Positions 976 to 34,669 of a stretch of 34,826 bases of DNA are shown in pieces; position 1 is the stretch's first letter; every line of letters begins with the position of its first letter. Origin of the DNA: Massalongia carnosa (taxonomy: Eukaryota). The DNA lies in contig OZ287074.1 in NCBI GenBank assembly GCA_965645245.1, forward strand, positions 2,418,001 through 2,452,826, read 5' to 3'. The translations under genes were made by a program, and so were the position numbers. The notes under the pieces were generated by a model. That model was not told the origin of the DNA and did not search any database. It saw only the letters and a program-made list of their open reading frames with translations.

Positions 976-1194
976 TATCAGCATTTGACTGACCGATCAC
1001 ATAGAAAGTGGGAGAATCGTGCTCAAGGCAGGCAGCGGTATATAATGGGCTATATGCCCCCATAGATAGCCTCAGTCATTTTCAATCAATCATTAGTAGC
1101 CTGCCATTGGATCAGCTTGATCATCGCACGTACTTTTTGCTGTTGTTTCCTACTTCCACCCCTATAATCCGTAGCCTCCGCAACACGTATTACA

Positions 1195-1208
1195 ATTGCC
1201 TCCCCTCT
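1195..1208 (-). other. Polypurine tract (PPT) of element A
   Basis: Minus strand AGAGGGGAGGCAAT immediately followed by TGTAAT at 1194, similar to the PPTs of D and E. Confidence 0.75.
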
Positions 1209-1382
1209 AGGACGCAAGCTCCGCCGAGCGTGTAGTGGATAGTAACGACACGTTAGGTGGGTGGTATGATGTGTATGGCAGGCGGTGAAAAACCTCCTTC
1301 CTTGTATGATAGTAAGGAGGAAAACCGGCCTCCGAAGTCAATGGAAAACCTCCTAACCCAGTGGGAACTGAGGAGTTAAACC

Positions 1383-1514
1383 GACTTGTCGAGATCGATG
1401 AAATACTCTAAAACCCTGATAAGACAACAGGAGAACATAGGGAAAACTGACTTCTCAAGATCGATGAAAAACCCTTAAACCCTGATAATATAACGGGAAA
1501 ACGAAGGGAAAACC
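1383..1514. repeat. Imperfect 66-bp tandem duplication in the 3' UTR of element A
   Basis: gacttgtcgagatcgatgaaa..aaaccctgataa..agggaaaac (1383-1448) vs gacttctcaagatcgatgaaa..aaaccctgataa..agggaaaac (1449-1514). Confidence 0.85.
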
Positions 1515-1560
1515 TTTCCTAGACTCCATAGTAGGTGGCAGGTGAGAAACCCCGAGGCTT

Positions 1561-4500
1561 CTACTTCTTCGCCTTCTTGCTCCGAGTGCTGGTAGCTGGT
1601 CGGCCTCGTTTCCGCTTGCATTTAGGCTTAACGATCAGCTTAGCCATTGGTGGTGCGGTGTCGATAGGAGGAGAGGTTGCTGTCGGCTTGGTGGGGTTAC
1701 CCTCATGGTAGGCTTCGGCGATCTTCCGAAGGTATTTGATCGCTGCCGCCGGGTTCCACGTACTTTCATCCTCTGGATAGCCCTTCCAGGAGACCAGATA
1801 GTAGAGGCCTGGTAGGTAGCCAGCTTCTGACTCCTTGGCGTAGACCGCGCAATCCAAAGTGCCTTCAACCTCGTACTCCTCATCGTTTCCAGCTCCGAAT
1901 TCTAGCTGCTCCGCGATCATCTCGTCCACCAGCCCATTCCTTGTGGTGTCCTGCTCCATCAGTGATACATGAAAGACATCATGGATGCGCCACCGTTTTG
2001 GAGGCTCCAGCTTGTAGGCTTGCTTGCCCACTAGTTGCAAGACACGGAACGGCTCAAAGAACTTAGCCTCTAGCTTGCGATTACGTTTAGTCTTAATATA
2101 CTTGCTGTTCAACCAAACTTTATCGCCAGGTGCATAGCTCCGTGGCTTGGTTCCTTTGTTGTGGGCCTTTGTCTGCCATTCTTGTGCGTGCTGAAGGTTT
2201 TCCTTGCAGATAGCCATCAGGTCCTTTAGTTCTGCATCTAGCTCTTCTGCTGACTTGGACCTGGAGCGGGGGTTGATGTCTTCCTCATATGAGATACGGG
2301 GGTGGTAACCACAGTTGAGCTCGAACGGCGTATGCCATGTACTCGCGTTTTTCGCATTGTTGTACGCAAACTCAACCATCGGAAGCAGGCGCGCCCAGTC
2401 GTCTTGTTCCTAGTTGACGAACGCCCTAAGGTAGGCTTCCATGGTGCTGTTCTGGCGTTCAGTGTGCCCATCGGTCTGTGAATGGAACGCGGTAGAGAGG
2501 CGTCGCTTGATGCCTAAAAAGTAGCAAAAGGAAGACCAGAACTTGGAAGTGAAAACTGAGCCGCGGTCGCTGACGAAAGATGCTGGCAAGCCGTGGTGAT
2601 GAACTACTACGTCTATGTTTACTTCTGCTAGCCATGGTGCAGTGATCGTTGTCAGCAGTGGCTCATAGTGCACCATCTTCGTAAGCCGGTCGACGATGAC
2701 CAGGATCGAATCGTAGCTGTCGCGCTTCCAATTAGCAGATTCAGGCACTCCGTCACAAAATCCATAGACAAGTCTTTCCAGTGATGAGTTGGCACTGGCA
2801 GTGACTGTAGGTTTCCGTAAGGCTTGTGTCTGACCGCTTTAGAATAAGCAGACGTCGCAACCCTTGACATAGCTCTCGACATCGCGGCGGAGAATCTCCC
2901 AGAATTACTTTCTCGCAATGAGTTCTCGCGTCTTTTCGATACGGAAGTGTCCTGCTAATGGATCATCATGACGCCTGCTGATTAGCTCAGTTCTGAGGAT
3001 CTCAGGGACATAAGACAAGCTTTTGATAATGCAAAATCCCCTCGGTGTCTTCCCAGCCATCTTTTCCAAGCTTCTCTGCTCTGATCATCTGAGCTTGGGT
3101 ATCTTCCTCCTGCAACTCCTGCAACCTCAACCTCATGCCACCAATGCTGACTTTGTAAGGACCTTCAGAGGTCAAGTCTTGGCGGAGCGTATCCAAAACT
3201 GACGTAGTTAAGGGAAGACGTGCGTTCCGCAGATGATGACTTGGTGTGGAGGGGTGAGATGCTGAATACTAGTGATACCAGAGATGCTGGCGCTGGTCAG
3301 CGAGGACTGCAATCGGTGAAGGATTCGAGTATTTTCAGCTCGAAGCACTTCCTCTTCGCCTTGGCTCCTCTGAGGATAGCGAGATAAAGCATCGGCATCT
3401 CCATTAGCCTTGCCTTGACGATAATCGATGCGGAAATTGTAACGAGAGAGTTCTTGCGCCCAGCGAACCTGGCGGGGGCTTAGACTCTTCATATCCATAA
3501 ATTGCCGCAGGTTGTTGTGGTCTGTAAGCACGAGAACTTCATGCTTACAACCTTCGAGATAATGCCTCCAATTCTTAAAGGCTTCAACGATGGCCAGTAG
3601 TTCCCCATCGTGAGTTTCGTACCGAGTTTCTGCAGGAATCATTTTTCGAGAAAAATACGCTACTGGGTGCCATTGGCCGGTTTCGATATCCAGCTGGCTA
3701 AGAACGCCACCTATGGCGTAACCCGAGGCGTCCGTCTCAAGTCGGATGTGGCGCTCAGGGTCAAAATGTCGGAGGATCGGTGCTTCAGTGAACGCCTGCT
3801 TTAATTGGGCAAAGGCTAACTTAGCGGCAGGAGTTAGGAAACAAGATCCTTCCTCTCCACGCCTTGCCTTTGGGGATGGCCCAGTGTTGGCTACCAAGTT
3901 TGTTTTGAGCATCGAGGTGAGTGGAGCAGCAATCTTGCTGAACCCCCGGATGAACCGCCGGTAGAAGTTGGCGAATCCCATAAACACCTGGACGTCTCGT
4001 ACTGACTTGGGTTCTGGCCAGTTCTTGACAGCTTCAGTCCTTTCCTCTTCCATACGAATTCCTTGGCCAGAGACAACGTAGCCTAGGAAGCGAACCTCAT
4101 CCTGATGAAAACGGCACTTCTTTAGATTGGCAAAAAGTCCATTTTTTCGGAGGTTCTCCAGGACCCACTTAACAGCCTCAACGTGGCCTTGGCCTGAGTC
4201 TTCGGTATAGATCAGGATGTCATCCAAGTATACGATGACGAAGATGTCGAGTTTCTCTGCTAGAAATTTGTAGATATAGCCCTGAAAACTAGCTGGGGCA
4301 TTGGAAAGGCCGAAGGGCTAACCTGATACTCAAAATGGCCATATCGAGTCCTGAAAGCCGTCTTCCATTCGTCACCTTCTCGAATTCGCATCTGATGATA
4401 CGCATTCGTGAGATCCAGATGGGTAAATCGCTTGGCACGGCCTAGTCGATCAAGCGACTCTCCGATCAAGGGCAACGGGTACCGATTCTTAATCGTCAGG

Positions 4501-5408
4501 GTATTGAGTCCTCGATAATCCACACACAGGCGTAGACTACCGTCCTTCTTGCGGATGAACAGTATCGGAGCACCAGCCGGAGACTGGGAAGGCCTAATAA
4601 AACCGCTGGCTAGGTTGGTTTCGATATAGGTATTCAGTATCTCTAGTTCCACAGGACCTAGGCTGTAGATTGGGCCATAAGGTGGCTGCTTACCATCTAC
4701 TAGGTCAATAGGATGGTCGTTAATGCCGGTGTGCTCCGGTAGCTCTACTGCGGATTCAGGGGAGAAGACGTCAGAGAAGTCGGAATATTCAACGGGGATC
4801 TTAGCCTCCTCGCTCACTAGCGAGGCTACTTGGGCCTGACGAGAGGCATGGATCGGCATGGACGATGGCTTGCTTACGGCCATTACATGCACCACATATG
4901 CCTCGTCCTCTCCTCTAAGGACCGCCGCCGCGAATACTTCCTTATCGATGATCTCCACACGTCAGGTTGTTGGTAAAGCCTCGGCAGCTGTGTAGGTTCT
5001 CCAGGCGAGCTCTCGCTCTGCGAACCGTAAATCCACACTGCTGAGTGTAAGAAAAGGCATCCCCAAGGACCACCTCCAGGCTAATATTAGCCAACAAGAA
5101 GGTTTCCTGGAAGAATCTAACCTTCCCTAGCTTGTCCTTGACCGCGAACCCTGCGATAACCATACCGAAGGTATCCAGGTGAGATCCATCAATCTTTTGC
5201 GCCCCAACATCTGTTTCCTTAACACAAAGGCCTAATTTCGCGGCATAAGCGGGGTACATTGCGTTGACCTCGCTGCCCGAATCTATCAAAGCCTATATCT
5301 CATCTTGATCCTTCCTCAAACGGACAGGATATCTAATACAAGGAACCCGCTCAAGATTAGCCTCCTTACTAGTTTCAGTCGGAGGCGCGGAGGTTGCCAA
5401 GACCGATA
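1561..5408 (-). pseudogene. pol: pol of element A (protease, RT, RNase H, integrase, chromodomain), frameshifted
   Basis: IDSGS protease motif, LCVDYRGLN and DDILIY RT motifs, ETDASGYAIGG RNase [11 protein letters not shown] / TDGHTERQN integrase, EYEVE..YYLVSWKGYP chromodomain. Split over several ORFs. Confidence 0.93.
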
Positions 5409-6557
5409 CTAGTTTTTTGAGGCATCCTTCTTGGACTCGCGACAAGTACTTGAGTAGTGTCCCTTCTTGTTGCAGTTGAAGCAGGCGATTTGGGATAAGT
5501 CCTTGCTGGTGCCTCTGGAAGTGTTGGCACCGGTGGCCGGAGTGAACTCCGAGCCTTTCCGATCTCGACCATGATCAAGACGTCGCTGCTTTTTCTTTTC
5601 TCTCCGAGCTTTCTTGTTAGCAATCTCGCTATTCTCTAGGCGCGAGTTTGATTGCTTCGGACCCGACGGTTTGGGCTTTTCGCTAGGCTCGTCTCGAGGG
5701 TCTCGAGTAGAGGTGTGGGGTTTGGCCACAGTAGCATGAGCGGGCCGGTTTCCATGTGGACAACGCTGATGCCTCTCACGAAGGATCGATTGCGGCTACA
5801 GGCTAGCTTTTGCCTCAGCATCGATCACTTTTTCGACCAGCTACTCCCAACTGTCTAGTTCCCTTCCTCGTTGTTCCATCTGAGCCTTTATCGAAGGCTT
5901 GAGGCCTTCACGAAAGAACCGGATAAGGTCCGACTCCTCTGGAGCTCCCTCAGCATCAAACTCCAGGAGTATAGATTGCAGATGTTCCAGGTGAGAAGCC
6001 CAATCCTGAACTTATTCTTGTTGATACTGGGAGTCCCGCTTGATCCTACTCCAGGTTGCGTCCACAAAAGCCCTGGAGTCTCCAAGATTCTTCCGAAGGA
6101 AAGCCTTGAACTCGGTCCAAGACAAATATCCTACCTCTTCACCTTGGCTTCGACGTTTGTGCTGGTGCCAACGAAAGCTAATCCGGCCACGAAGGAAAGA
6201 TGCGGCAAAGGATGGACGGTTTGACCCGGTGGCGCCGGCGGTGTCAAAGTGGTCTTCGCATTGTTAGCAGAAATGGTAACACTCCATATGGGACTTTCAA
6301 TAGTAGAGATCCGGGAACCGAGCTTTCAACTGACCTTCTCGGGGGCCTTCATGTCGACTACCTTGTGCCTGGAGGAACGCCTCCATGCAGAGCTTTGTGA
6401 TTCTCTGCAGATCTTCCTCAGTGTATTTGGCAGGGCCCGTAGCTACCTCAGTGCTTGGTGTCGGTGACTCTTCCGCGGGCCTTGAAATATCTTCTGCCTG
6501 GGGAGATCTTGTTGGACCTTGCCGAACATTCCTGTGAGGGCGAGAGTTTGATGACAT
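5409..6557 (-). pseudogene. gag: gag of element A with CCHC zinc knuckle, frameshifted
   Basis: ATG at 6557. Capsid-like SFAASFLRG..WTEFKAFLRKNLGD segment. CFNCNKKGHYSSTC knuckle. Ends A_AAA_AAC TAG. Confidence 0.88.
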
Positions 6558-6646
6558 CGTTTGCGGAGTTCAAAAACAGATGGCTCTACTAGCTAAGCTC
6601 CTCTAAACGGGCTGGCTGACCCGTAGGGTATGAGAGCAATTAGAAT

Positions 6647-6864
6647 TGTAATGGGCTACGAGGCCAGTAAGCTAATCACGAGCGAAACTGATTTCGAAAA
6701 GGGGAAATGCTCAGCGTGAGAGGTGGAAGATAGCTACTACGTGCTAGTCTCCGAGAGTATACGTGATCCAAAGAACTAATTGATGTGGAAGTGCTTAGAC
6801 CAAGAGATCTCGTCCGGGACCCAAACGTAGGTTGTTCATAGAATAATGACTAATTGCTAACGAA
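6647..6864 (-). repeat. R-U5 remnant of the 5' LTR of element A (U3 displaced by element B)
   Basis: Ends TTACA on the minus strand. 9-nt motif at 6850-6858 is complementary to 6635-6643 just inside the element. Confidence 0.75.
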
Positions 6865-7210
6865 TGTCACGGTGTGAGGTCTGGTAGGAATCCAGGTGAT
6901 GCAAACGTATTACTTGATTGTCTAGCTAGGTGGACAAGACGTTCGACAAGGAGAAAAGAAACAGAAAATCCAACGTGGGCGAGTATAAGACTCTGGCGAA
7001 CTGAACTAGTCCCAATCCAGCCGTTGATCCAATTTCCCCCAAGTCCCTGGCATAAAACTATCGCTATGACAGTCGGAACACTTACCTTTGCCCTGACTGA
7101 ACCGGATTAAGCTTAGTTCCTTTCGGATCGGCTAGCCGGCTAGTGCTTCGTTCAAGCAGCTAAGGTTGGTTCATTGAACTAACTGGCAGGTGCCCAGTCA
7201 CTCCATGACA
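6865..7210 (-). repeat. 3' LTR of element B (346 bp)
   Basis: TGTCATGG...CCGTGACA termini. Preceded on the minus strand by PPT AAAAGGGGAGCTGG. R-U5 is alignable to the E LTR. Confidence 0.92.
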
Positions 7211-7222
7211 CCAGCTCCCCTT

Positions 7223-10200
7223 TTAGGTGCGAGCTCCGCGAGGACCACCAGGCTTGGTAGGCCTCAATCGATGAAAATCTTCCAATAGGTCTGAGCAGTG
7301 GGTGACGTCCTTAGCTTCAGTCCAGTCGGGGGCGTCCCAACCAGTCCATTTGATCAGGTATTGTAATCGTCTTCGAAAGAAACGGGAGTCCAAAATTTCT
7401 TCGACTTCCCACTCTGTTTCACCTTCAACTTGGACAGGAGGAGAAGGAGCGGGTATGTGGCCGACGTGGAGGTGTTGAGAGACAGGTTCTAGAAGAGAGA
7501 CGTGGAACACAAGATGAACTTTCATAGAGGCGGGAAGGTCTAACTCGTATGCGTACTAGCTAACAACCTTATTTATAATGAACCTTCCAAGCTTTTTCCA
7601 ATCCAACTTTCGTGATGGCCGTTTGGTCTTTATATGCCTAGCGTCCAACCATACCTCGTCACCGACATGAAACATGGGAGCCGGGGTCCTGTTTGCATTA
7701 GCAGATGCTTCATAACGCGCTTGAGCTAGGCGCATTTCGTCGCCGAGGTGTTCACTGATACTTTGCATTTTGGAGGCGAATTCGTCGGCGCTAATGACCT
7801 GCGCATTGGGGGAGTCGCGATGAACAGGTTCAAAACCAAGACGGGGGTGGAAACCATAGTTAGCAAGGAACGGGCTGACGGACGTTGTTTCGGAGTCGAA
7901 GCAAACTCAGCCATGGGCAGCCAGTCGGTCCAGTCATCTTGTTGATAGGATACATAGCTTCTGAGGTATTGTTCCATGACCGAGTTTTATCGTTCCGTTT
8001 GACCGTCGGTCTCCGGGGGAAACGACGTGGATAGCCGACTGTTGATCTTTAGTCGTTCACATAGTGCTTTCCAGAAGTCAGCGATGAACGGGCCTCCTCG
8101 GTCCGACACAATGGAGTCAGGTAGGCCATGAATTTTCCAGACATGTTCCACGTATAGCCTAGCCAAGGCCTTAGCGTCGATGGTTTCTCTGCAGGGAATA
8201 AAATGCTTCATCTTGGTTAGTCGACAAACAACGCTTAGTATGGCGTTTTATCACTACTTTCGGGTAGGCCAGTGACGAAATCCATGGATATGTCCTTCCA
8301 TCGTTGTTGAGGAACAGGCAAAGGTTTCAACACTCCGTACTTAGCATGATGAGAAGCTTTACTGCGAGAGCATGTGTGACAGTGCTGTACATAGCGGGCA
8401 ATGAACTGAGGATATCGGGGCCAGTAGTAGTCTCGCGCCATTAGACTAAATGTTTTAGATCTGCCTGGATGACCGGCGACTGGACTGTCGTGATATTCCT
8501 TGCATAGTCTCGTTTTTAATTCATGCCAATCAGGGACATATAGCCTTTCCTTGTAGTATAGTCTTCCATTCCTGTCTTCACATTCGGCTAGGGTGATGTC
8601 CTTGCTGTGTCGAGTACCGTTTCGGAGAAGTGTCAGGATTTTGTTAGGCATAGGGTCATGTTAATATCCTAGATCAATGAGTTCGTCTATAGATTTGTCT
8701 TCCGAGTCAGAGGCGGGAGCAAGGTTCGATGGTTCAATGACGATGTTAGGTTCAGAGTCGGACACGTCAGTCACACGAGGCACGTTGTTAGCATGAAGTT
8801 CAAAATTATGCGGTTTTAATACCACCTGATTCTGATATTCCAGTCTCACGTCCCCTTCCTTAGGAAGATCTCCTGATCTTCTAGTCAAAGCATCAGGTTT
8901 TCCACCTAATTTGCCGGGTCTATACGTGCTTTTGAAGTCGAAACGTGAGAGATATTCTGCCCAGCGGGCCTGTCGTCTGCTTAGCTGCTTGGTGGTGGTG
9001 AAATACTCTAGGTTTTTATGATCGGTGATAACTTTAACCGGATATGCGGCTCCTTGGAGTTCTGGTCTCCATTCCTCGAAGGCACGTATTATGGCTAGCA
9101 GTTCTTTATCATAAATCTCGTAATTGCATTCCGCCGGTGACAAACGTCGCGAGAAAAAGGCTACGGGGCGAAGGACTCCATTGTCATCATACTGTGAGAG
9201 AACTCCGGCATTGACATAATCAGAAGAGTCAGTTTCAACCACACTTTCCTTATCGGGGTCAAAATGCAGCAGAACAACGTCACTGGTGAACATAGCCTTC
9301 AGATCCTCGAAGGCCCTGGCGCAGTCAGCGGTCCATACGAATAATGTCTTCTTTTTTGACATAGCAGTTAATGGTCCGGCTATGCGAGAGAAACCCTTGA
9401 CAAATCGACGATAGAAATTCGCGAATCCTATGAAGGCCTGCACGTCTTTTAGATTCTCGGGGGTGTTCCAATTCTGAATTGTCTCAATTTTCTTAGGGTC
9501 CATTCTTATACCATCTTTATATATTATCAGCCCTAAATAAATGGTCTCCGTGACATGGAATTCACACTTTGAGATGTCGAGTTGTAGTCCGGCCTTCCGT
9601 AAGGCCGTTAGTACTTTTCTCACACGACCCTTGTGTTCGCTCATGGAATTGCTGTAAATCAGTATGTCATCGATGTACGCGTTGCAGAAGATGTCTAGAT
9701 ATTCACGAAGCACATCATTAATGTACTCCTGAAACGAGGATGGCGCTCCACAGAGCCCAAATGGCATGACGAGATATTCGAATAATCCATAACGTGTTCG
9801 AAAGGCAGTTTTCCATTCCTCTCCATGAGTTACACGGAGACGGTTGAAAGCCGCGACAATATCCAACTTAGTAAAGACAACTGCCTTACTCAAGCGGTCC
9901 AAGGTTTCTCTAATCAAAGGTAGGGGGTATTTGTTCTTGATCGTTATCGCATTTAATGCTCTGTAATCAACACAAAAACGCAGGCCTCCGCTTGGTTTCC
10001 TAACGAACATCACCGGGGACGCAGCGGGGGAAGAACTGGATCGAATAAAACCATTCTTCAAGTTTTCCGTGAGATACTTCTGTAGAACTAACAGTTCATC
10101 TCGACTCATGCCGTATAACGGGCCATACGTGGGTTCCTTTACTTCCATTAATGGAATTTTATGATCATAGCTACGTCGCTCAGGAAGTTTATCAGCTTCT

Positions 10201-11133
10201 TTCTTGGAAAATACATCAAGAAATTCATGATATTCCTGTGGCAACACTGTAGCAGGGTCAATTTCCGGTTTAGGGTTCAAGGCACGCTCGATATCTCTCA
10301 TGTTCACGGTAAAGAGTTCACACTCTTTTTTCTTTGCTAGACGGGTAAAGGGGCGGCCCCTATCATACATATACTCAATGGTGGACTCTGATTAGTCGGC
10401 GGCGGAACGAGCGGGGACGGAACGGGTAAGGTCGAAGACAAGATAGGCGAAGGGGCGGCGGACGCAACCGCATTGGAGTTGACGCGCTGATTTAACCGGC
10501 CGGGCCTGTTAAATCTAACCGCCTCGGAACTAGTGTCATGAGCGATGATTGGCGCAGTCGTGTCGGGACTAGCGCTACTTTCAACGACGAGGGGTTTTTC
10601 TGCGCGGAGTTCTGGGACATTGGTTATGCCGATGACCGTGTTTGACTCGGAGTTGTCAAGACAGTGCTGACGGCAGTAAGGTGAGTTGAACGTGAGAGAG
10701 TTCATGGCCCATCGTATGCTGACGTCGTGAATTTGCAGCCATTTAATGCCGAGAACGATGGGGTAGTGACCGAGGCTGGTGACGAGGAGGTTAGCGGGTT
10801 CGGAATGCGACGCGATGTCAAGGTTCAAACGGGCGAGCTGGGTAAGTTTTCCAGACGACACGGGACGACCGTCTGCGAGTTCAAGAATACGGGGTTTCTT
10901 CATGGGGGCGAGGGGTATGCGGTAGTAGTGCGCGAACGAAGAATCAACAAAGGCAAATCCAGATGCTCCACAATCAATCAATGCATAAGTCTTGATTCTG
11001 ATTGTTCCTATGGAAACAACGAGAGACATAACAAAATGCCTTCCATCCAAGTTTTCTTCGGATAGAGGTTCTTTTGACAGAGAAAATGCCGAAATCGAAA
11101 TAGCTCCTTTCGATACATGTCTTCGGCTGCAAC
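7223..11133 (-). pseudogene. pol: pol of element B, multiple frameshifts/stops
   Basis: LIDCGASG protease, YIDD RT, ETDSSDY RNase H, HHCC and VSDRG integrase, EWEVEEILDSR..YLIKWTGW chromodomain. Confidence 0.94.
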
Positions 11134-11888
11134 TTAGGCCGAAGACTGAGCTTTTTCCTCCTCCGGAGTTACCGAGCTCAGTTCATATGTCTTCATTCTA
11201 GCTTTTCCCTTGGAGACTGGGCAAGCATTGGCGAAATATCCGGATCCTCCACAGTACATACATAGTCCCCCATTCATGCGGCGCGATCTTTCCGCCGATA
11301 TGATGGGATCACGTCGCCTAGAGGTTGACAGGTCCATGGCATCCGAGTCTGCAAATGGGGAGAGAGCGGGCCTAGGAGCGGGCCTAGGAGCGGGAGTGCT
11401 GGGGGTAGAGGTGGAAGAGGTCTTGGTAGTCGGGGTGGACGGAGCAGAGGAGGAACGGGATGAGCCATATGAAAATGGGTTGCGGATTGAAGCTTGGACG
11501 GAACGGAAACGATTATCAATTTTCTGAAGGCTTTGTATGGTGTCGTCCAGAGAGGTAGGTAGGTCCACCGTGATGAGAGCAGATTTCAACTCATCACTTA
11601 GACCATCTAGGAGAATAGATCGTTTGGCTTCATCATCGAAACCTGTGTCCGGAACGAGACGTTGATAGTCTGATAGGTATAAGTAGAAATCTTTGTTCTT
11701 TTGTCGAAGCTGTCGCAGTTCCCTTTGTGCAGTGCTTTTCTATCGGGGTCACCGAAGGCCAACTGCAATTTGGTATAGAATGCTTCCATATTGACAAGAG
11801 CAATGTTTCCATCTTTTTCCAGGTACGGCTTTAGTTGTTCCAATGCTTTCTCCTTCAAGCGGCTTAGTGCATAAGCGAGCTTGCTTTT
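11134..11888 (-). pseudogene. gag: gag of element B, 5'-truncated and frameshifted
   Basis: SKLAYALSRLKEKALEQL and CMYCGGSGYFANAC align to E gag. Similarity stops at about 11888. Confidence 0.9.
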
Positions 11889-13317
11889 TGTCACAGTTGA
11901 AGCAGCATGTACGGAACAGTTTCGGACTTACGCCCACAAGCTCGCGGCTACGCAAGACCTCGGGCGCATTGTATTGGACGAGGCTCACTTGACTATCACA
12001 GCGTCCGACTATCGCGAGGCTATGGTTGACCTCGCCCTGATCCGCAACGTCCGTACGCAGTTTGTTTACTTAACAGCTACTCTACCACCGACAATACAAG
12101 CTAGATTTGAAGAGCAGAACAACTTGGTGAACCCCAAGGTGATTCGAGCATCGACGAACCGGCGAAATCTGTTCTATATGGTACAGCGGGCCACCGGGCG
12201 AGGGAGTCTGCTCGAAGAGGGCGCGCGGAGGGCAAGGGAGGCGTGGGAGAATAGCCAGCTCTTGGATCGGGCTCGAGATAAGATCATCTTATACGTTCGG
12301 ACAAAGGAAGATGCTGCTACGCTGGCTGAGCTACTCTGCTGCTCCCAGTACACAGCTGATATAGGCACGGCTGAGCAGAAGGAGGAGCTGGTGAGAATGT
12401 GGCCTGCCGCCTCGGACCAGCCGTACATGGTGGCCACGTCTGCACTAAGCGCTGGCTTCGACTATGCCCACGTTCGCTTAGTTGTGCATGTCAAGGAGCC
12501 GTCGTCTTTAGTCGACTTCGCCCAAGAGTCTGGTCGGGCCGGGCGGGATAGAAAGGAGGCGTACTCGCTAGTCCTCCTCTCACCTACATGGAAGCCGCAA
12601 GCCGCTGAGATTACCGCGGTCGAGAGAAAAGCGGTTCACCGCTACCTCCTCGGGCAGGACTGCCGCCGGGCATGCTTGAGTGAGCACCTCGACTCGGAGC
12701 CGTATTGGCGACAGTGTCAGGCTGACGAGGACGTTGTATGCGACGTATGCAGCGCCGGCCCAGCTCTCGCTCCGTCTTCCGCTCCGTCTCCCGAGCCGGC
12801 TCTTCAGTATACTGGCAGTGCAGCTATCCAGGAGAAGCGACGTCGAGCCGAGCTCGAGTTAAGCCGGTACCAGGAGGACCTGCTCGCAGTTCAAGGCACG
12901 TGTCTGCTCTGCCGGGCATCCGACGATGCCTGGGACCACGCCTTCCCTACGTGCTGGCGTCGATTCGAGTTCTTTGAGGCTCGCAATCGTGTTAAGAAAG
13001 CGAAGCAAGGAGGGCGGTGGATTACTCCGTACCACACATGCTACTGGTGCTATAATCCCCAGGCCGTCTGTTCGCGAGCGGACCCAAAGAGTAACTGCCA
13101 GAGCTGCCTCTACGCGGATATTGTCATGCCGCTCTGCTATGGCATCTTCCACGGAGGTGGGGCCGAGCAGTGGCTAGAAGAGCGGTTTCAGCGGACGTTT
13201 ACAGACGTCGATGAATTTCTTAAGTGGTGTGGTCAGGCAGCTAGCTTCGGCGGGGGTAAGGCAATCTAGGGAGTCTGTGTAGCTGCGGCTGCCCTAATTC
13301 AATTTGAGTTATACTAG
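11884..13317 (+). pseudogene. RecQ-family helicase, telomere-linked helicase (TLH) type, C-terminal part only
   Basis: IVLDEAH (motif II), LTATLPP (III), VATSALSAGFD (V), QESGRAGRD (VI), CRR..CDVC Zn motif and Cys-rich tail. Motif I is missing. TAG at 13267 may be a premature stop because the frame continues to 13317. Confidence 0.88.
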
Positions 13318-13580
13318 GCTAGGTGTAAGGTAAAACGGGAGTTTAGACTAGGGTTGAGTTAATTATAAATTTAAAGTATAAAGTATCGAATAGAGAAGGA
13401 TTAATTATGAATAGGCAAATAGGCCATAGGGTCGATGCCTACTCCCCAGCTTTCCTTCGCTTTTGCCTTTGCCTCCCTCAACTAATATACGGGCGTGAGT
13501 AAGCCGAGGCACTGCCTACGACCCCCCACTCGGCCGCTGACCCAATCCCTGGCGAGGTGCCCACGCCAGCCAAACCTAGG

Positions 13581-15165
13581 GTATTACATGAGGTTCTACA
13601 CTTCTGCTTTAGTAGAGTGAATAAAATTAATGAGCTTCTTGTATTCGTCTTCTTTCCTGTGCTTCTTGAAAAGAGTGACTATTAAGCACTCTACCTACTT
13701 GAGCAAAAATGCCAGCGGCTCTGGATGGATGTTATTGTACTTCTTTCAGTCACTAAGGTCGTTGGATCTTCCAATATCCTGCTACACTAAGCTCGAGTTC
13801 AGCAGGCCTGACTTGACCGACGCATACGATGTGTGGGAACAGCGCTGGTCAGAGGCAACCGATCCAGATTTCTACAATAAGAATCGTACCTATGTCGACC
13901 TGGCAAAGCAGACTACATCTAAGGATTCTGCTTTGCCGTATAACCAGATCCCCGATCATCACGAGGCAAAAACGTTCCTATAGAGGAAGTGCTGCCTTGA
14001 CGCATACTCTAGGACCCGCACAACTCTTAATACAGATAGAAGCAAAGCAAAAGGGAACCCAAATCGTACCGTATATCCTTGGGCTACTATACGAGATACA
14101 GTAGGCTAGATATTCTTCACTGCACCGCAGGGAGTTGAATGCCGAGATAGATTGATTTATTCCCCGTTCTGTACGCTAATAAAGACGCCCTTTGACTCGA
14201 CAGATGTAAACGTCTTTAACAACGACTCGGTAGAAAACCTCGCACTAGATCCCGGATATGTAAGGTCTCTGCAACAAGAAAGTGGTGCCGTTACCTTCTC
14301 TAAGGGCGTGTGCGAATTTGCCTAACTGCATAGTAAGAAGCGGGTATATGCTAATCTCCTCGACAACCGCTGGAGATCGTACGACACGAGAAAAAAGCAT
14401 CGGATTTCTCTGACCATGATAGAGGAGATCTAGGAGTAATAGTAGCAATGGGATCTCTACGATGCCGACGATATCGACGATGACCGGTCTCCGTTGCCGT
14501 ATTATATTATCCCCACGCGTGACCTTCCCGCTTTTCTCTATGCCCAGATCAATAAGTACTGTTTTCTCTTCGAGCACACCTTAGCCAATACAGCGAAGAC
14601 TTATTCCTTATCTGAGACGATCGTAATAGTCATTGCACTGCGAGCACTCCGCTTCTGCTACAGCAGTAATCTACTCGAGCGAGAATCGCTTCTTTTCAAG
14701 GATCACTAGCAGCAGATGCGTGGCCAGAAGGTACTCGTCAAAGAGGGCCTCGGGATAAAGAAGAGCATCGAAAGCTGCGGAATGGGCTGGTTCCTCCCCA
14801 AGTTCAACTGGGCGACATAGAGGCTAGCAGCACCGCATAGGCAGAATATCCTGGTAGGAAACATGCTTATGCACGAGGAATACAAACAGAGATAGAGGGC
14901 AGTCAAAGATCTCCGGGACACCTCCGTCTCTTTCAACTAGGCAAAGTCCTAGTTTGATAAGTATAAGGGTCTGGGCAACGGTAGGCTAAGGATGGCGTGC
15001 CTAGAATATCTATACGTGCTAAACCTCGAGCAATTCGACGCTGATGTATGAAAGGCTATGCTCAGGACTAATAAACAGAGCTATAAGCTTAGACCCGAGG
15101 CTATACAGTCGGCAGCCAAGAAACGGCTTTGCTATTATAATATAAAGAGGATGTTCTCGGGGAAC
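13581..15165 (+). pseudogene. Pseudogene of unknown function with RIP-like nonsense mutations, truncated at both ends
   Basis: One frame from about 13780 to 15165 gives protein-like sequence (TKLEF..YVDLAKQ..IKTPFD..ENLALDPGY..LHSKKR..EGLG..GWFLPKFNW) with about a dozen stops, mostly TAG, and no frameshift. Cut by the G LTR at 15166. Confidence 0.7.
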
Positions 15166-15649
15166 TGTAATAGGGTAGGCCTAGTATGCGTTCGTTGAAC
15201 GTAAGACTGGCCTATGTGGCTATGTGGGATACGTACAGCCAAAACAACCACCAAGACAATAAGGTCCCGCCTAACCAAGTTAGGCATAGTGTGGGGACTT
15301 AACTTATTATGGAGGTATTTTCGTAGTACACGAAGTATCCCCTCGCCTCGTCTCACCTCCCCTAGCTCGCCTGCCAAGTCTTATCTACCCGTGTCTTTCG
15401 GTGACCGAAGTATTTCGGAGACCGAAAATACCAGGTAGTATGGGCAAGGTACGGAAGAAGAGCTTAGGTTGTGGATTGTCCTATCCTATATAGATCAATG
15501 ATCAAGCACTTCAAAAGGGTAGCATTTAGTCTACCCTTTGACCCGACCCAACCTATTTGTACCTCTATTGTGACCATCACGTTGTGTAGCCCCTGTGGAT
15601 CCCATCTTCCAGTAGTGAATGCCTGCTGGGAGAAGGTCTCCCCGTTTCA
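15166..15649 (+). repeat. 5' LTR of element G (484 bp)
   Basis: TGTAATAG...CGTTTCA. Boundaries are defined by the inverted solo copy at 33108-33776. TATATAG at 15487. Confidence 0.92.
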
Positions 15650-15784
15650 ATTCTAAATGCTCTATATATCTCCGGATTAGCACGATCCGGTGGTCGCAAT
15701 AAGGGTGCTGCTTTTTACCGCTTTCGCCATCGAGCACCATTTGGCCTTTCGTCGTTCAGGCCAAACTTCCTCATCGATTCTTCC

Positions 15785-16569
15785 ATGGCCTCCCGCAGCC
15801 AGTTCGCTGCAATTAGGGCCTCAATGGATCCTTCTCTCCTCGGCACCTCCGGTGCTTCGGCTAAATTCAGCCAATGCATCTGGTGCTCCGCCGTCTAGTG
15901 GCCCCCTTCCTGTCGGCCCGCACGGCTCCTCCCGTCCTTCCTCTGGCACGTCAGCTACCACAGTGACTCTGACTGCCGAGCAATGGGCTGCTATCCAGTC
16001 TACCCTGGACCAAATCAACCAGGGCCAGGGCCGAACTCCCTCTCGGTCTGCTCGCCGATCTCGATCGGCCCCACGATCTCCTCGGGCACCCCAGTCGCCT
16101 GAGAGGTCATCCAGGTGGAATAGTCATCATACCTGCCGGGACTCTCGCTCTCGCTCGCCCGGCCATTACCATCGCCGCCGGTCACCTTCGTGTGACTACT
16201 CAAGCCGCCGTTATGACGGCGCCTCTCGTCCCTTACTGAAGCCCAAGTTTTCTGACATATACAAGGGAAGTAGTCACAAGGAGCTGCATGAGTTCGCTCG
16301 TCAGTGTCACGAGTACTTCAAAAACTGCACGGGCGCATCCCGATGATTCTTCCTCCGTCTCTTTCGCGGCTTCCTTTCTTCGCGGAGAGACTTTTGGCCA
16401 TGTATGGTCAGAATACGTCCAGACATTGCCGCTTGATTACGACCCACCCTGGGCCGAATTCTCAAAGGTCCTCTGGGATGACCTTGGCAACGAGAAGACC
16501 TTCGTGGACAAAACCTGGGGAAAGTTCTTTAGTTTTGTTCAGCGCCCTGGAGACAACGTACGCACGTTT
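15785..16569 (+). pseudogene. gag: gag of element G, part 1 (Ser/Arg-rich region and capsid start)
   Basis: YKGSSHKELHEFARQCHEYF..SFAASFLRG..WAEFSKVLWDDLG, similar to A gag. Two apparent frameshifts. Start codon is a guess. Confidence 0.75.
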
Positions 16570-17056
16570 TGTCATGAAATGCCTCCGACCTCACCACGTG
16601 CCTCTATCACGTGCCTTGATCTGATGACTACTCACGGACGTCGTGCCATGCCTTCGGGACCCTCATATCATTCTTCGAATTCGCCGATTACTGATCATTA
16701 ATCAGCCTCGCATTGATGATTTATTCCCGTCTTTCGACTATTATCATGTCTAATAGCTTCGCATTGATGTTTGACATCTCCCGTCTCCTCGCTGACCCCA
16801 TCGTGCTTATTACCGCTATAATGCCCCTCATTCATCATCGCACTGACTAGACATCATTCGCCGCCACCCTAGAAAGATGAATATGGGAGGACAAAGATAT
16901 AAGAAAGAAGTCGAATCATGGAAGTTCTGATTCTTTGTCGAACGTCTTGAATAGCCAACCTAGCCTAGCCTAGATTCATAGCTATAGACTCAATCAATAA
17001 GCTTGACCATCAACCCACCTTGCCTTTGCCCTTGCCCTCGACCTGATTTCGTGACA
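16570..17056 (+). repeat. 5' LTR of element D
   Basis: TGTCATGAAAT...ATTTCGTGACA. Direct repeat of 22764-23250. Confidence 0.98.
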
Positions 17057-17132
17057 TTACGTTCGACCAACATTCAAAAGTGCCTTCCATAGCATTTTCC
17101 CTCATCTCCCTTTATCTCATTCCCCCTCAATC

Positions 17133-22720: not shown

Positions 22721-22763
22721 ATAAGATGGCATCGCAGGAGCTCTGCCTTGAAGGGGGAGCTAC

Positions 22764-23250
22764 TGTCATGAAATGCCTCCGACCTCACCACGTGCCTCTA
22801 TCACGTGCCTTGATCTGATGACTACTCACGGACGTCGTGCCATACCTTCGGGACCCTCATATCATTCTTCGAATTCGCCGATTACTGATCATTAATCAGC
22901 CTCGCATTGATGATTTATTCCCGTCTTTCGACTATTATCATGTCTAATAGCTTCGCATTGATGTTTGACATCTCCCGTCTCCTCGCTGACCCCATCGTGC
23001 TTATTACCGCTATAATGCCCCTCATTCATCATCGCACTGACTAGACATCATTCGCCGCCACCCTAGAAAGATGAATATGGGAGGACAAAGATATAAGAAA
23101 GAAGTCGAATCATGGAAGTTCTGATTCTTTGTCGAACGTCTTGAATAGCCAACCTAGCCTAGCCTAGATTCATAGCTATAGACTCAATCAATAAGCTTGA
23201 CCATCAACCCACCTTGCCTTTGCCCTTGCCCTCGACCTGATTTCGTGACA
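22764..23250 (+). repeat. 3' LTR of element D
   Basis: Direct repeat of 16570-17056, preceded by the PPT. Confidence 0.98.
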
Positions 23251-23255
23251 CGTTT

Positions 23256-23351
23256 AACGTACAGCTTCAACAATTGTGCTCCGTTCTTCAGGAGTATGAC
23301 CATCATTTCCCCCGCGAGTCCGACATGATTCGCCGCGCTCGAGATGCTCTG
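23256..23351 (+). pseudogene. gag: gag of element G, part 2
   Basis: NVQLQQLCSVLQEYDHHFPRESDMIRRARDAL continues ..GDNVRTF in frame across D. Confidence 0.85.
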
Positions 23352-23603
23352 TATAAGAAGGACAGTAGACACTAGTCCTTATGGGTTATAATGCTCAGTG
23401 TGACTGCTAATAGATTGGTAGGTGCTAAAGCTAAAAGCTGATTCCCTGAAGATGGGAATCGAGCTTTCTATATACCCCTTGCGGTCCTATTTACTAACTA
23501 CTTGTCTGGTTACCTGTCTGCCTTGTTGCCTTCAGCTGAGGTCTAGTAGATAGCCTTGCTGCCTTCAGCTGAGGTCTAGCAGATAACCTTGTTGCCTTCA
23601 GCT

Positions 23604-23904
23604 TGTCACGGGGTGACAAAGCACATGCCACGTCGGAACGGGAAGAACTAGTCTTCCGGAGGTGCTAAGAACAGTCATGAGGTAATGGCATTGCGGAAGT
23701 GCATGCCGAAAGCATGACGAAGTCAACATGGTAATCAGGGCAGACAACGTCCGAAGGTGGACTAGCTTAGTTATCAGGAGTAATAGGCATGTCTTTTCGT
23801 TCTACTGTTTCTTTTCTCTTTGTCGAACGTCTTGTCCATTTAGCTAGACAATCAAGTCTCACGTTTGCACCACCTGAATTACTACACGCCCTCGCACCGT
23901 GACA
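23604..23904 (+). repeat. 5' LTR of element E
   Basis: TGTCACGG...CCGTGACA. Direct repeat of 29053-29353. Confidence 0.98.
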
Positions 23905-23941
23905 CTACGTTCGACCTGCTCATTCACCTGGTGCATTCATT

Positions 23942-29040: not shown

Positions 29041-29052
29041 AAGGGGAGCTGG

Positions 29053-29353
29053 TGTCACGGGGTGACAAAGCACATGCCACGTCGGAACGGGAAGAACTAG
29101 TCTTCCGGAGGTGCTAAGAACAGTCATGAGGTAATGGCATTGCGGAAGTGCATGCCGAAAGCATGACGAAGTCAACATGGTAATCAGGGCAGACAACGTC
29201 CGAAGGTGGACTAGCTTAGTTATCAGGAGTAATAGGCATGTCTTTTCGTTCTACTGTTTCTTTTCTCTTTGTCGAACGTCTTGTCCATTTAGCTAGACAA
29301 TCAAGTCTCACGTTTGCACCACCTGAATTACTACACGCCCTCGCACCGTGACA
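29053..29353 (+). repeat. 3' LTR of element E
   Basis: Direct repeat of 23604-23904. Confidence 0.98.
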
Positions 29354-29607
29354 CAGCTGAGGTCTAGCAGATAGCCTTGTTGCCTTCAGCTGAGGTCTCC
29401 TAGGCGTCTCAGGCCTCCCATGAGATCGAGGCTTATCTGAATAGCTTCAGTTGCTGCCTAACAAACTGGTAAGGCTGATTGCTGATGGCTTAGTATTGCT
29501 ATCCGCCTTATCATGACTAAGCATCCGGATTATCAGTCACCCGGTCTTCTTGGGTGAGTCATCCCAGGAGCTAGCGCAGTCCTGTATTGCCGCGCTATTA
29601 CACTCTG

Positions 29608-29979
29608 CGTCCTGAGATTAAATCAGCCCTTTACAACATGGTTGACAATGCGAGCACCTACTCGCAATTCGTCGATCTCGCAATGCAGGCCGAAGCATCC
29701 GTTAATATGCACACCTCGACCAAGAACTCCTCACATCGCGACTCTCGTCGCGAATAGTCAAGGGATGCCTCGCAAACTCGATCGTCGAAGACTCAGGGTA
29801 AGAATCACAGACGTGGCAAGGGTAACAACAAGCCTACCGAATTTTCCGGCACCTCTGCCAACAAGACGCCTGCCACTGGCGCCAACGCAGAGCCTCCTGC
29901 CGAAGTCACCTGCTATAGATGCGGTGAAAAAGGGCATATCTCTACCCACTGCACCAATCCTCCCAAGCCAAAAAACTAG
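29608..29979 (+). pseudogene. gag: gag of element G, part 3 (zinc knuckle)
   Basis: RPEIKSALYNM..CYRCGEKGHISTHC..PKN*, in frame with part 2. One internal TAG. Ends A_AAA_AAC TAG. Confidence 0.88.
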
Positions 29980-31092
29980 CTGTCGCCGGCGTTACTTCCG
30001 AACCGGTGACTGACCCTAGGAGGCAATTGCCAAGCATGCGCCCCGTTTGCAAAGAGAACCCTCTACGATAGATGGTTCTCGGTTGACTACCCATGGCATG
30101 GGGTTAGCCAAATTCTCTCTTGATGACAAGCTCGAACGAACTCGCTGGTTCGAGGAGACTTTTCTAATAGCAAACGTCTCTCATGAAGTTGTGTTGGGGA
30201 TGCCTTTTCTGAAACTCGGCAACCCGGACGTCCACTTCGCTGAAGGGTCTCTCACTTGGAGAGATTATTCTGTCTCGACTTCTTTGCCAACCGAAAGGCG
30301 CATTGAGTTAGTTGAGCCGGAGACCTTCGCAGAGGATGCTCGGGATGATAAGTCCGCTTGCTTTGTCGTACAAGTAGCCGCCATTCTTGATGCGTTGGAA
30401 GACGCTAGGCGCGTGAACCTACAGGCTATTTCAACTACAGAGGAGATCAAGCTCCCTGTGGAATACACCGATTATGAAGGGGTATTCTCTGCGGAGAAAG
30501 CTGACGAGTTGCCGTCGCTGACCCCGGATGATCACAGAATCGTCCTAGAGGAGGGCAAGTCGCCTCCTCATGGGCCTATCTATAGCCTCGGTCCCACGGA
30601 GTTAGAAGCTCTAAGGGGTTATATCGAAGTCAACCTCAATAACGGGTTCATCAGACCGTCGACTTCTCCTTTGAGGGCGCCTATCCTCTTTATTAGGAAG
30701 CCCAGCGGAGGATTGCGGCTATGCGTCGACTACAGGGGTCTCAACAATATAACGATTAAAAATTGTTACCCCCTGCCGTTAGTAGGCGAGGCCCTAGATA
30801 GGCTCGGCCGAGCGAAGGAGTATACCCAGCTTGATCTCATCCATGCGTACCATAGGGTGCGAATAGCAAAGGGAGACGAGTGGAAGACTGCCTTTCGAAC
30901 TCGCTATGGCCATTTCGAATATCAGGTTATGCCCTTTGGGCTTTCCAATGCACCAGCGACGTTTCAAGCTTTGATTAACAAGGTACTCGCTGAAAAACTT
31001 GATGTTTTTTGCATTGTCTACTAAGACGATATTCTAATTTACACTGAAGAGACTGGTTCAGCGCTCACTGATGCGGTTAAGTGGGTGTTTGA

Positions 31093-31588
31093 TGTAATAG
31101 CGCGGCAATACAGGACTGCGCTAGCTCCTGGGATGACTCACCCAAGAAGACCGGGTGACTGATAATCCGGATGCTTAGTCATGATAAGGCGGATAGCAAT
31201 ACTAAGCCATCAGCAATCAGCTTTACCAGTTTGTTAGGCAGCAACTGAAGCTATTCAGATAAGCCTCGATCTCATGGGAGGCCTGGGACGCCTAGGAGGC
31301 CTCAGCTGAAGGCAACAAGGCTATCTGCTAGACCTCAGCTGAAGGCAACAAGGTTATCTGCTAGACCTCAGCTGAAGGCAGCAAGGCTATCTACTAGACC
31401 TCAGCTGAAGGCAACAAGGCAGACAGGTAACCAGACAAGTAGTTAGTAAATAGGACCCCAAGGGGTATATAGAAAGCTCGATTCCCATCTTCAGGGAATC
31501 AGCTTTTAGCTTTAGCACCTACCAATCTATTAGCAGTCACACTGAGCATTATAACCCATAAGGACTAGTGTCTATTGTCCCTCTTATA
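31093..31588 (+). mobile_element. Solo LTR F, copy 2 (496 bp)
   Basis: TGTAATAG...CTCTTATA. TSD TTTGA (31088-31092 / 31589-31593). TATATAG at 31466. Confidence 0.93.
31298..31420 (+). repeat. 33-bp tandem repeat (GACCTCAGCTGAAGGCAACAAGGCTATCTGCTA), about 3.7 copies, in F U3
   Basis: Read directly. The same array in F1 is split by E. Confidence 0.92.
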
Positions 31589-33107
31589 TTTGAACAATTA
31601 CGAAAGCACGGCCTGTATGCCAATTTGCAGAAGTGCCGTTTCAGTCAGAAAGAGGTTCGCTTTCTTGGGTATATTATTTCACCTGAAGGTATTCGGATGG
31701 AGAATGATAGGATAGAGAGCGTGCGCAGCTGGCCTAGACCCCAGTGCGTTCGCGATATTCAAGTCTTTATAGGCTTTGTCAAATTTTACCCCCGGTTTAT
31801 CAAGGGGTTCAGTAAGATCGCTAGGCCTTTGACCGCGATGCTGAAGACGACGGGTCCTAAGATGCCGAAATCGGACTCGTTTCTGACTGCTGAGGCGTTA
31901 GTAGCGTTCGATCAACTGAAGGGGGCCTTTGTCACGGCCCCAGTCGTCAGGCACGAGACCGTGCCATCTCAGAACTGAGATTTTGGAACCGGTTTCAAGT
32001 TTTTACGATCGATGCAATTCGTAAAAGGTTGTAAATTTAAAACCACGTATGCAATAAAAAAATTATCTATTTAATTTCAGGATTGAAATCGAAAAATTGA
32101 AAACTTTTCTTAAATTTTCTAAAACTTACGACTTGCGAAATAAGCGGAAAATGTCACACTTGATGACCCGGACGATAAGTTTTTGATAACACAATAAACT
32201 TGCTGTCTATTTTGCAATTGAATACATTTTCTACGTGATATGATACCCTATATCATCATAAACTTACAGCAGGATTCGGAGGAACATGAGTTATCATGTC
32301 ATGTTGCGATCGCAGAATTACTTCCGGATATACAATGTTATCCGTTTTCCAGTCATTTCGGTCCGGAAACAACATACACAATCGAGACACATCCATAACT
32401 CGAGATAATGCCACATATAACTGACCATGAGTAAAAGGAGGAGCTCGCAAATCGACTCCTATCGTGTCCAATGCTTGACCTTACGACTTGTTGACAGTCA
32501 TAGCAAAGCACAATCGTATCGGAAATTGTTTGCGACTTATGATCCAGGGCAACTCGCCTTCCGTGGTATTAAGAAGAATCCGGGGAATTAATCACGTTTC
32601 ACCGTTGAATTCTTATCCCAAAATCTTTCCCTCTAGACAGGTCCGCGAAATGTGAGTAAGACGTAATCGGGTGCCGTTACAGAGACCAAGTTTGGGATAC
32701 AAAATCCGCAAAAAAATGATTCCGGCTCCAAGTTTCAGTTGCAATTGTGAAGGTTGTATAGACGATGTTTGCAAGGGTTGTAAAAACTCGGGAGAAAGAA
32801 AGTCTCCTCGTTCCTACGCCGTATCGTTCTCTATTTGAGCAACGAAGTTCACGGTGTGCGAACCGCCCTGCAATTTATTCAGTACTGCACCGTTTAACTC
32901 TGCGACGATATCGTTCCGCAAAGTCAAAATTGCTCGACTTGCGAAAGAATCCGCATCCAGATGAGCTTGCCGCATGCGATCGGAAGGAAAAACGGTGTCC
33001 ACGAAACTGTCTAAGTTGTTCAGTTGATTGACTTGTTCCGGTAGCTGAACACGACCGGAAAAAGCAGGATCATAAGACATTTTCCCGATCCAGTCCGCAA
33101 ACGCCTC

Positions 33108-33776
33108 TGAAACGGGGAGACCTTCTCCCAGCAGGCATTCACTACTGGAAGATGGGATCCACAGGGGCTACACAACGTGATGGTCACAATAGAGGTACAA
33201 ATAGGTAGGGTCGGGTCAAAGGGTAGACTAAATGCTACCCTTTTAAAGTGCTTGATCATTGATCTATATAGGATAGGACGATCCATAACCTAAGCTCTTC
33301 TTCCATACCTTGCCCATACTACCTGGTATTTTCGGACTCCGAAATACTTCGGACACCGAAAGACACGGGTAGATAAGACTAGGCAGGTGAGCAAGGGGAG
33401 GTGAGGCGAGGCGAGGGGATACTTCGTGTACTACGAAAACACCTCCATAATAAGTTAAGTCCCCACACTATGCCTAACTGGGTTAGGCGGGACCTTATTG
33501 TCTTGGTAGTTGTTTTGGCTGTACATGGACCTTATTGTCTTGGTGGTTGTTTTGGCTGTACATGGACCTTATTGTCTTGGTGGTTGTTTTGGCTGTACAT
33601 GGACCTTATTGTCTTGGTGGTTGTTTTAGCTGTACATGGACCTTATTGTCTTGGTGGTTGTTTTGGCTGTACATGGACCTTATTGTCTTGGTGGTTGTTT
33701 TGGCTGTACATATCCCACATAGCCACATAGGCCAGTTTTACGTTCAACGAACGCATACTTGGCTTACCCTATTACA
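33108..33776 (-). mobile_element. Solo LTR of the element G family (669 bp)
   Basis: Reverse complement of 15166-15649 plus 5 extra 37-bp units. TSD GCCTC (33103-33107 / 33777-33781). Helicase frame NEVANEA|FADWIGK is restored on removal. Confidence 0.95.
33490..33711. repeat. 37-bp tandem repeat x6 (GGACCTTATTGTCTTGGTGGTTGTTTTGGCTGTACAT)
   Basis: Six head-to-tail units with no spacers. Two single-base variants. Confidence 0.97.
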
Positions 33777-34584: not shown

Positions 34585-34669
34585 ATTTCATTTGCGATCA
34601 ACGGATTTCCAGTACTCCGACCCCAATCGTATGTAAACAGCGGCATATTCTAATCCTCTAATCGTTTTC

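Follow-up and report, generated by a model that had tools for sequence, protein, structure and literature searches.

How do two LTR retrotransposons, here called A and G, begin reverse transcription if neither carries a site for a tRNA primer? The question is raised by a stretch of 34,826 nucleotides, referred to throughout as the window, which corresponds to G000:C8:2418001-2452826 in an assembly of 52 Mb. This sequence represents the end of a fungal chromosome, packed with nested LTR retrotransposons, and a TTAGGG array occupies it from about 34670. A sequence-only reading had proposed that the two elements prime themselves, with a short segment of the LTR acting as primer, and had built its argument around a compensatory base change between A and G.

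Element A retains only part of its 5' LTR, which is 1030 nt long in other copies; element B, whose 3' LTR ends at 6865, cuts it 6 nt upstream of the 9-mer discussed below and displaces the remainder. The reading frames of this copy are broken. Its Pfam domains run in the order RVT_1, RT_RNaseH, rve, SH3_Tf2-1 and Chromo (Chromo E 1.9e-8), the arrangement that marks Ty3/gypsy chromoviruses (PR-RT-RNase H-IN with a C-terminal chromodomain). Element G extends from 15166 to 31953, nested insertions having divided it into four pieces; its pol was classed by its 64-67% identity to A in RT and IN DNA rather than by a whole-pol scan. The RT-RNase H regions of A and G are 75% identical and, in a tree without named reference elements, A, G and a further family, E, form one clade with a support of 0.955. 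These comparisons place A and G as sister chromovirus families of one lineage. The homologues in the tree derive from fungi, amphibians and an alga, which fits the range of the Tf1/sushi group. The gag and pol ORFs overlap in the -1 frame in natural copies of A, G, E and a fourth family, X, the frameshifting itself being predicted.

Several other features of the window accompany these elements. The 3' LTR of A (1186-771) is broken by about 400 nt that have no match in other A copies and that start with a 150-nt LTR-like piece. A plus-strand ORF at 11875-13269 takes the place of the 5' end of element B and encodes a Helicase_C domain (E 5e-10); we take it from its appearance to be RecQ-like, and it is possibly the remnant of a telomere-linked helicase. 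A broken PIF1-like helicase on the minus strand, at about 32300-34650, adjoins the telomere repeat and holds an inserted solo G LTR, flanked by a 5-nt target duplication, that carries the tandem array listed in the table.

Table. Positions in the window of the elements, the putative primers and their binding sites (PBS), and the predicted RNA structures.
Feature	Position	Strand	Remark
Element A, overall	6864 to 1186	minus	
A, remaining R-U5 part of 5' LTR	6647..6864	minus	LTR-terminal CA at 6647
A, internal region	1186..6646	minus	gag with CCHC; pol with RT, RNase H, integrase, SH3, chromodomain
A, putative self-primer AGCAATTAG	6850..6858	minus	34 nt after GATAAATA in intact copies
A, PBS CTAATTGCT	6635..6643	minus	3 nt past LTR end; 21/23 copies, other 2 with G·U change
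A, leader pairing back with U5, predicted helix closing PBS loop	6585..6634	minus	11/300 shuffles as strong
G, 5' LTR	15166..15649	plus	TG...CA, 484 nt
G, TATA-like box TATATAG	15487..15493	plus	starts 34 nt before primer
G, putative self-primer AGCATTTAG	15521..15529	plus	
G, U5-leader helix, 5' arm, predicted	15559..15587	plus	z -3.95, 0/200 shuffles
G, U5 hairpin, predicted	15594..15644	plus	ends 8 nt before PBS
G, PBS CTAAATGCT	15653..15661	plus	3 nt past LTR end; unpaired in predicted fold
G, polymorphic PBS base opposite primer position 5	15657	plus	A here (6/22 copies), T in 16/22
G, U5-leader helix, 3' arm, predicted	15680..15708	plus	
G, leader and first part of gag	15662..16569	plus	cut by nested element D4
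G, gag, second piece	23249..23351	plus	
G, gag end, protease, start of RT	29603..31092	plus	
G, RT, last piece present, truncated	31590..31953	plus	
D4, putative primer GTCGAACGT	16937..16945	plus	6/2000 shuffles
D4, PBS ACGTTCGAC	17059..17067	plus	2 nt past LTR end
D3, putative primer GTCGAACGT	23822..23830	plus	23/2000 shuffles
D3, PBS ACGTTCGAC	23907..23915	plus	2 nt past LTR end
E, primer AGCTTTTAG in solo E LTR	23431..23439	minus	LTR about 23352-23603 and 29354-29602, split by D3
E, primer AGCTTTTAG in second solo E LTR	31501..31509	plus	LTR 31093-31588
Solo G LTR with internal 37-nt tandem array	33108..33776	minus	primer at 33236-33228

In both A and G, a 9-mer within the LTR is complementary to a 9-mer just beyond it, and the letters and coordinates of both pairs are exactly those first reported. 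The claimed distance of 3 nt between LTR and PBS is likewise correct, an ATT standing in both families between the terminal CA and the 9-mer that begins with CTAA; the LTR ends (CA at 6647 on the minus strand and at 15649 on the plus strand) were set from full-length two-LTR copies elsewhere in the genome. The spacing of the TATATAG box from the G primer is as described. The two LTRs had been called unalignable, and the full A LTR indeed gives no significant local alignment with the G LTR, the best match (E 0.73) being the primer itself. When the LTR was shuffled and any post-LTR offset of 0-6 allowed, a complement of at least 9 nt to the post-LTR sequence arose in 7/2000 shuffles for the A of the window, in 36/2000 for the full A LTR and in 20/2000 for the G of the window. 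Pairing is perfect in 19 of 22 A copies, includes a G·U pair in two and a mismatch in one, after the removal of 3 of 25 A loci from which the PBS is absent. Among 22 G copies it extends to 9/9 in four, 8/9 in 17 and 7/9 in one.

The surroundings of the G primer show some variation. The primer lies inside an inverted repeat (15512-15539), AAAGGGTAG ... CTACCCTTT, that can form fully only where the RNA contains U3, as it does at the end of the 3' LTR or in transcripts that start upstream. Two G copies, L250 and L032, have the primer variant AGCATTAAG with the PBS unchanged at that position; in L250 the variant is present in both LTRs, which fits the copying of R positions 1-9 from the 3' LTR of the parent. 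In the alignment of a further G copy, L266 (G000:C19 near 1195950), both flanks of the PBS are present but most of the 9-mer between them is missing. Finally, L267 is a single G-type LTR that has no PBS after it, an altered upstream region and the A-type primer AGCAATTAG.

Complementarity played no part in the recovery of families E and X: solo LTRs in the window led to E, an RNase H peptide pattern led to X, and the LTR end defined the PBS of each. In E, AGCTTTTAG pairs with CTAAAAGCT and, in X, AACGATTAG pairs with CTAATCGTT, in each case over 9 bp at an offset of 3 (24/2000 and 16/2000 shuffles, respectively). Where the primer matches, the PBS is nearly invariant, being the same in 21/23 copies of A, 21/21 of E and 28/30 of X. 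The proposed check, that covariation should hold among family members, thus comes out with 9/9 pairing in A, E and X and with only 8/9 in most G copies. The motif AGCwwTTAG, put forward as the primer of the lineage, is too narrow, as X has AACGATTAG. It could be argued that the complementarity has arisen by chance or as a by-product of LTR hairpins, given that a single 9-mer is expected in 0.3-1.8% of cases per element and that the double change first emphasized is not fixed. The idea is contradicted already by families E and X, and the same length, offset and TATA distance recur in four families with unalignable LTRs, so that it is scarcely credible.

The E LTRs end in TA, not CA, in 21/21 matched copies (L145-L147; window LTRs included), as do those of the relatives L179 and L224. 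At L161 (G000:C14:27300-37200), an X copy close to the end of a contig is flanked by degenerate tandem repeats whose unit is GGTGGACAAAA-like. The nested elements D3 and D4 belong to another chromovirus clade and display the same layout as A and G; both D4 (16570-23250) and D3 (23604-29353) are young, with near-identical LTRs. Their primer, GTCGAACGT, is also contained in the minus-strand B LTR that abuts A. A loose PBS pattern search did not rise above its control (226 vs 324 matches), and six of its non-A/G loci, when inspected, had no upstream complement; a second loose pattern search was uninformative.

A tRNA that primes from its CCA end needs a TGG in the PBS. The claim that A and G have no such site is borne out: there is none in the first 8 nt of any post-LTR sequence, and no tRNA 3' end, in a set of 31 nuclear and 12 mitochondrial genes, matches the PBS over more than 1 nt; the set represents a lower bound, with 63 of 2634 candidates scored. 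Internal tRNA matches reach 6-8 nt at best. One intron-bearing tRNA gene, L132 (G000:C4:350292-350382), was called SeC (tca) by ARAGORN under the bacterial code, which is probably a miscall caused by the intron. A host RNA, either a half-tRNA or another small RNA, might still prime at the post-LTR site and leave the LTR 9-mer as a structural partner only; the ATTCTAA core common to A, G, E and X would suit such a primer, as would the lower-bound nature of the tRNA set. However, the PBS differs by family and tracks its own LTR, the internal tRNA matches fall in different genes for different families, and a single host primer would not yield family-specific letters. Priming by a host RNA is therefore very improbable.

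Relatives in metagenomes extend the series. Of 78 loci, 11 belong to the wider clade or lie beside it, and a scan of these found a 9-bp pair directly before gag in 5/11; of the others, five contigs start at or within gag or pol and one is degraded. All four of the whole-element circular contigs in or beside this clade have 9/9 pairing. The five pairs are partly circular as evidence, because it was a scan for complementarity that found them, and separate support is provided by their position, by a primer that begins with A and by a TATA-like box in 4/5. Across nine families, with G entered as the window allele, double-sided changes occur at each of positions 2-9, and each primer fully fits only its own PBS. 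A TATA-like box is located 33-37 nt upstream of the primer in 8/9 of these families and the primer start has the context pyrimidine then A, the TATA spacing serving as a proxy for the RNA 5' end. More distantly, 8 of 12 two-LTR metagenome elements were examined: one has a 12-nt complement (1/500 shuffles), three related ones have an 8-nt complement (26-39/500 shuffles), and no complement was found in the remaining four. In L225, a distant metagenome chromovirus, a 12-nt LTR/PBS complement lies 37 nt after TATAAATA (1/500 shuffles).

Taken together, the recurrence of a 9-bp duplex in four resident families and five relatives, with double-sided changes across positions 2-9, makes self-priming a well supported interpretation. 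In A and G an LTR segment is complementary to sequence within 0-5 nt of the 5' LTR and a tRNA-type PBS is absent, as in the Tf1/sushi group, and the two sister families very probably prime themselves in the way that Tf1 does. The original proposal consequently stands as regards the lack of a tRNA match, the 9-bp duplexes and the TATA spacing; the compensatory change on which it leaned is not fixed.

RNA folding adds a structural dimension. When G RNA is folded from the first base of the primer, the prediction comprises a long U5-leader helix and a U5 hairpin, with the PBS left unpaired. Against 300 shuffled leaders, the predicted helix stands out in G (2 and 0 shuffles as strong), E (2), A (11 and 7), L172 (4), L179 (0), L191 (2) and D3 (0), and does not rise above shuffles in X (40), L178 (82), L224 (37) or D4 (229). 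Only in E does the predicted upstream duplex directly adjoin the PBS, its place in G and X being taken by a U5 hairpin that ends 8-12 nt earlier. The models suggest that the U5-leader helix may hold the PBS open in most families. With unconstrained folding, the mean pair probability of the primer duplex is 0.0 in G, E and X and 0.0-0.26 in A, which is to be expected when such a duplex crosses the U5-leader helix, and is counted neither for nor against. A search of Rfam returned 0 matches.

The base change at position 5 had been presented as a difference between families. It is in fact a polymorphism within G, of which the window copy has the minority allele: the PBS of 16/22 G copies is CTAATTGCT, identical to that of A, and only 6/22 have the CTAAATGCT of the window. 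Position 5 of the G primer is nearly fixed, being T in 168 LTRs and another letter in 2. The result in most G copies is a U·U mismatch, since the primer T is fixed while the PBS keeps the letter of family A, and the own-primer duplex in these copies amounts to -6.1 vs -9.3 kcal/mol. Two copies with the T allele have identical LTRs (0/484 and 0/483 differences) and so were inserted recently, which suggests that priming in G tolerates the mismatch. The sequence-only reading thus likely arrived at the correct mechanism by way of a base change that is not fixed.

The minority allele is scattered over the family. Trees of G were built without the PBS site from 19 of 24 sequences, three short ones and two without a readable PBS being omitted; on these, 4-5 steps are required for the PBS base, much as for labels assigned at random, and each of the 10, 20 and 22 other sites in the three trees (minor count at least 4) needs three or fewer. 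By the four-gamete criterion the PBS-A allele is incompatible with 14/14 informative sites in the 400 nt to either side of it, and the next site reaches 0.62. Over 912 neighbouring bases, only 3 separate L031 from a T copy. The allele occurs in 6/22 copies of G and, in the same PBS context, in 0/23 of family A (Fisher p 0.009); its share is not clearly different from one half (p 0.052). Among the public runs, X1 and X2 contain both alleles and the single X4 contig contains T alone. At rough depths, T is the majority here and in all three runs. The scatter, the incompatibility and the absence from A together indicate that one base switches repeatedly, and it does so between the letter of family A and the exact complement of the G primer. 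Three of the copies with the A allele, L032, L250 and L251, are near one another in gag and may share one origin.

Two explanations, both of which concern this polymorphism alone, compete with copying of the primer. In one, self-priming is real and the A allele has been scattered by recombination or gene conversion among G copies, or by a slippage hot spot beside the AA run. G copies do recombine, since sites over the whole internal region reach 5-7 steps; moreover, the PBS is a point of strand transfer and the allele is found in six copies only. On the other hand, the allele is unlinked to both sides, the other G sites of this type show A in single copies only (1/13 AATT and 2/54 AAT), the same context in family A never changes, and the base gained is precisely the complement of the primer. 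We regard this account as possible though doubtful. In the other, AGCAAUUAG, the primer of family A, often acts in trans on G, and the PBS base switches in both directions according to the primer used. The A primer fits the majority G PBS at 9/9, that PBS being identical to A's over 14 nt, and binds the T allele at -9.3 kcal/mol compared with -6.1 for G's own; trans-priming would also account for the persistence of T, and two T copies fall among A copies in the gag tree. Yet the reciprocal change is absent from A (0/23), the presence of most of the same PBS frame in E and X allows the identity to be ancestral, G retains its own conserved primer, TATA spacing and helix, and parsimony requires no A-to-T step. 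Trans-priming is accordingly unlikely, and is the weaker of the two.

Copying of the primer into the PBS is the explanation that we favour, and the steps envisaged are as follows. Transcription would start at the A of the 9-mer, about 35 nt downstream of the TATA box. The first 9 nt of the RNA would pair with the PBS, a site 3 nt beyond the LTR that the predicted U5-leader helix encloses in a loop. By analogy with Tf1, RNase H would cut after about nucleotide 9 and the released fragment would prime minus-strand DNA. Plus-strand strong-stop DNA would then copy the primer, so that in a new insertion one strand of the PBS can carry the complement of the primer. In family G, the second strand transfer would yield a mismatched PBS duplex in which either base may be fixed, such that some new copies, the window copy among them, gain the base that matches the primer. 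As a second route, a DNA copy of the primer at the end of the cDNA could anneal to existing PBS sites. On the sequence evidence, such a copying step in G is somewhat more probable than its absence. With similar confidence, copying of the primer into the PBS during plus-strand synthesis appears the likeliest cause of the switching, in whichever direction this runs. One-way conversion should erode the T allele, however, and leaves its majority unexplained.

If this account is true, family G displays primer inheritance in progress at a single site, and its pattern amounts to sequence evidence that the LTR 9-mer primes in vivo. A change in the LTR primer would be written into the PBS by replication, and no second mutation would then be needed for the two to covary; this would explain how primer and PBS stay matched in evolution. 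Covariation that arises through replication shows that priming happens, not that selection has restored pairing, and a natural 8/9 duplex would be sufficient for recent transposition. The polymorphism in G provides a population-level test of self-primer inheritance, and the recurrent switch at the position-5 PBS base is a more useful result than the compensatory change that was claimed. The set as a whole contributes a covariation series that is well bounded and in which the duplex keeps a length of 9 bp throughout.

Experimental proof of self-priming comes mainly from Tf1, and elsewhere the mechanism is deduced from complementarity. The primary surveys of the Tf1/sushi group are said to be those of Lin and Levin in 1997 and of Butler in 2001. 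The mechanism itself is already described for this group, and A, G, E and X are probable new members of this self-priming kind. Self-priming is treated as general for Tf1/sushi chromoviruses (PMC6317226, PMC4600332, bioRxiv 2022.12.06.519325), and is common, as proposed for A and G, in MAGGY, skippy, Cgret, grasshopper, Tcn1 and sushi; most members outside fission yeast share the gag-pol overlap of A, G, E and X. The fungal chromovirus clades are listed in PMC2864245. The 9-nt duplexes of A, E and X fall below the complementarity cut-off of 10 nt given in Neumann 2019.

Tf1 and Tf2 of Schizosaccharomyces pombe, with Tj1, Tosmo1-3 and Tcry1, are the closest parallels: like A and G they are chromoviruses that use no tRNA and whose PBS is the complement of a segment predicted to begin the RNA, and they have flanking helices, which are predicted for part of the present set. 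The sequence of start, pairing, RNase H cut and priming is outlined for Tf1 in PMC7175516 and PMC5341516, and a pretzel structure of three duplexes, with helices on both sides of the PBS, in bioRxiv 2022.12.06.519325. The predicted folds of the A/G type resemble this pretzel, although not in every family. There are also differences, in that the Tf1 duplex is 11 nt long rather than 9 nt, Tf1 has a single ORF in place of overlapping gag and pol frames with a CCHC gag, and G has a family-wide internal mismatch; the 5' end and cleavage are here presumed. According to PMC11042837, about half of Tf1 cDNA molecules have a DNA copy of the primer at their end, which can anneal to existing PBS sites, and the same copying is proposed for G.

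In the open-licence literature, whose reach excludes most primary Tf1 papers and supplements, no report of primer inheritance in self-priming elements was found. Ty1 and Ty3 of Saccharomyces cerevisiae are LTR retrotransposons like A and G, Ty3 being of the same superfamily, but are tRNA-primed and are reported in PMC7472051 and PMC5371799 not to inherit the primer, with strict inheritance of the PBS, the opposite of what G suggests. Self-priming chromoviruses, unlike Ty1 and Ty3, may on balance inherit their primer sequence into the PBS. Among mouse ETn/MusD elements, Cullen and Schorn 2020 (PMC7472051) describe a commonest PBS that has a mismatch with the primer, while sites with a perfect match are scattered over the tree, and ascribe the scatter to primer copying with 50:50 inheritance. 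Those elements are tRNA-primed retroviruses with a host-encoded primer, whereas in G the primer is encoded by the element itself, and copying would therefore let primer and PBS change together.
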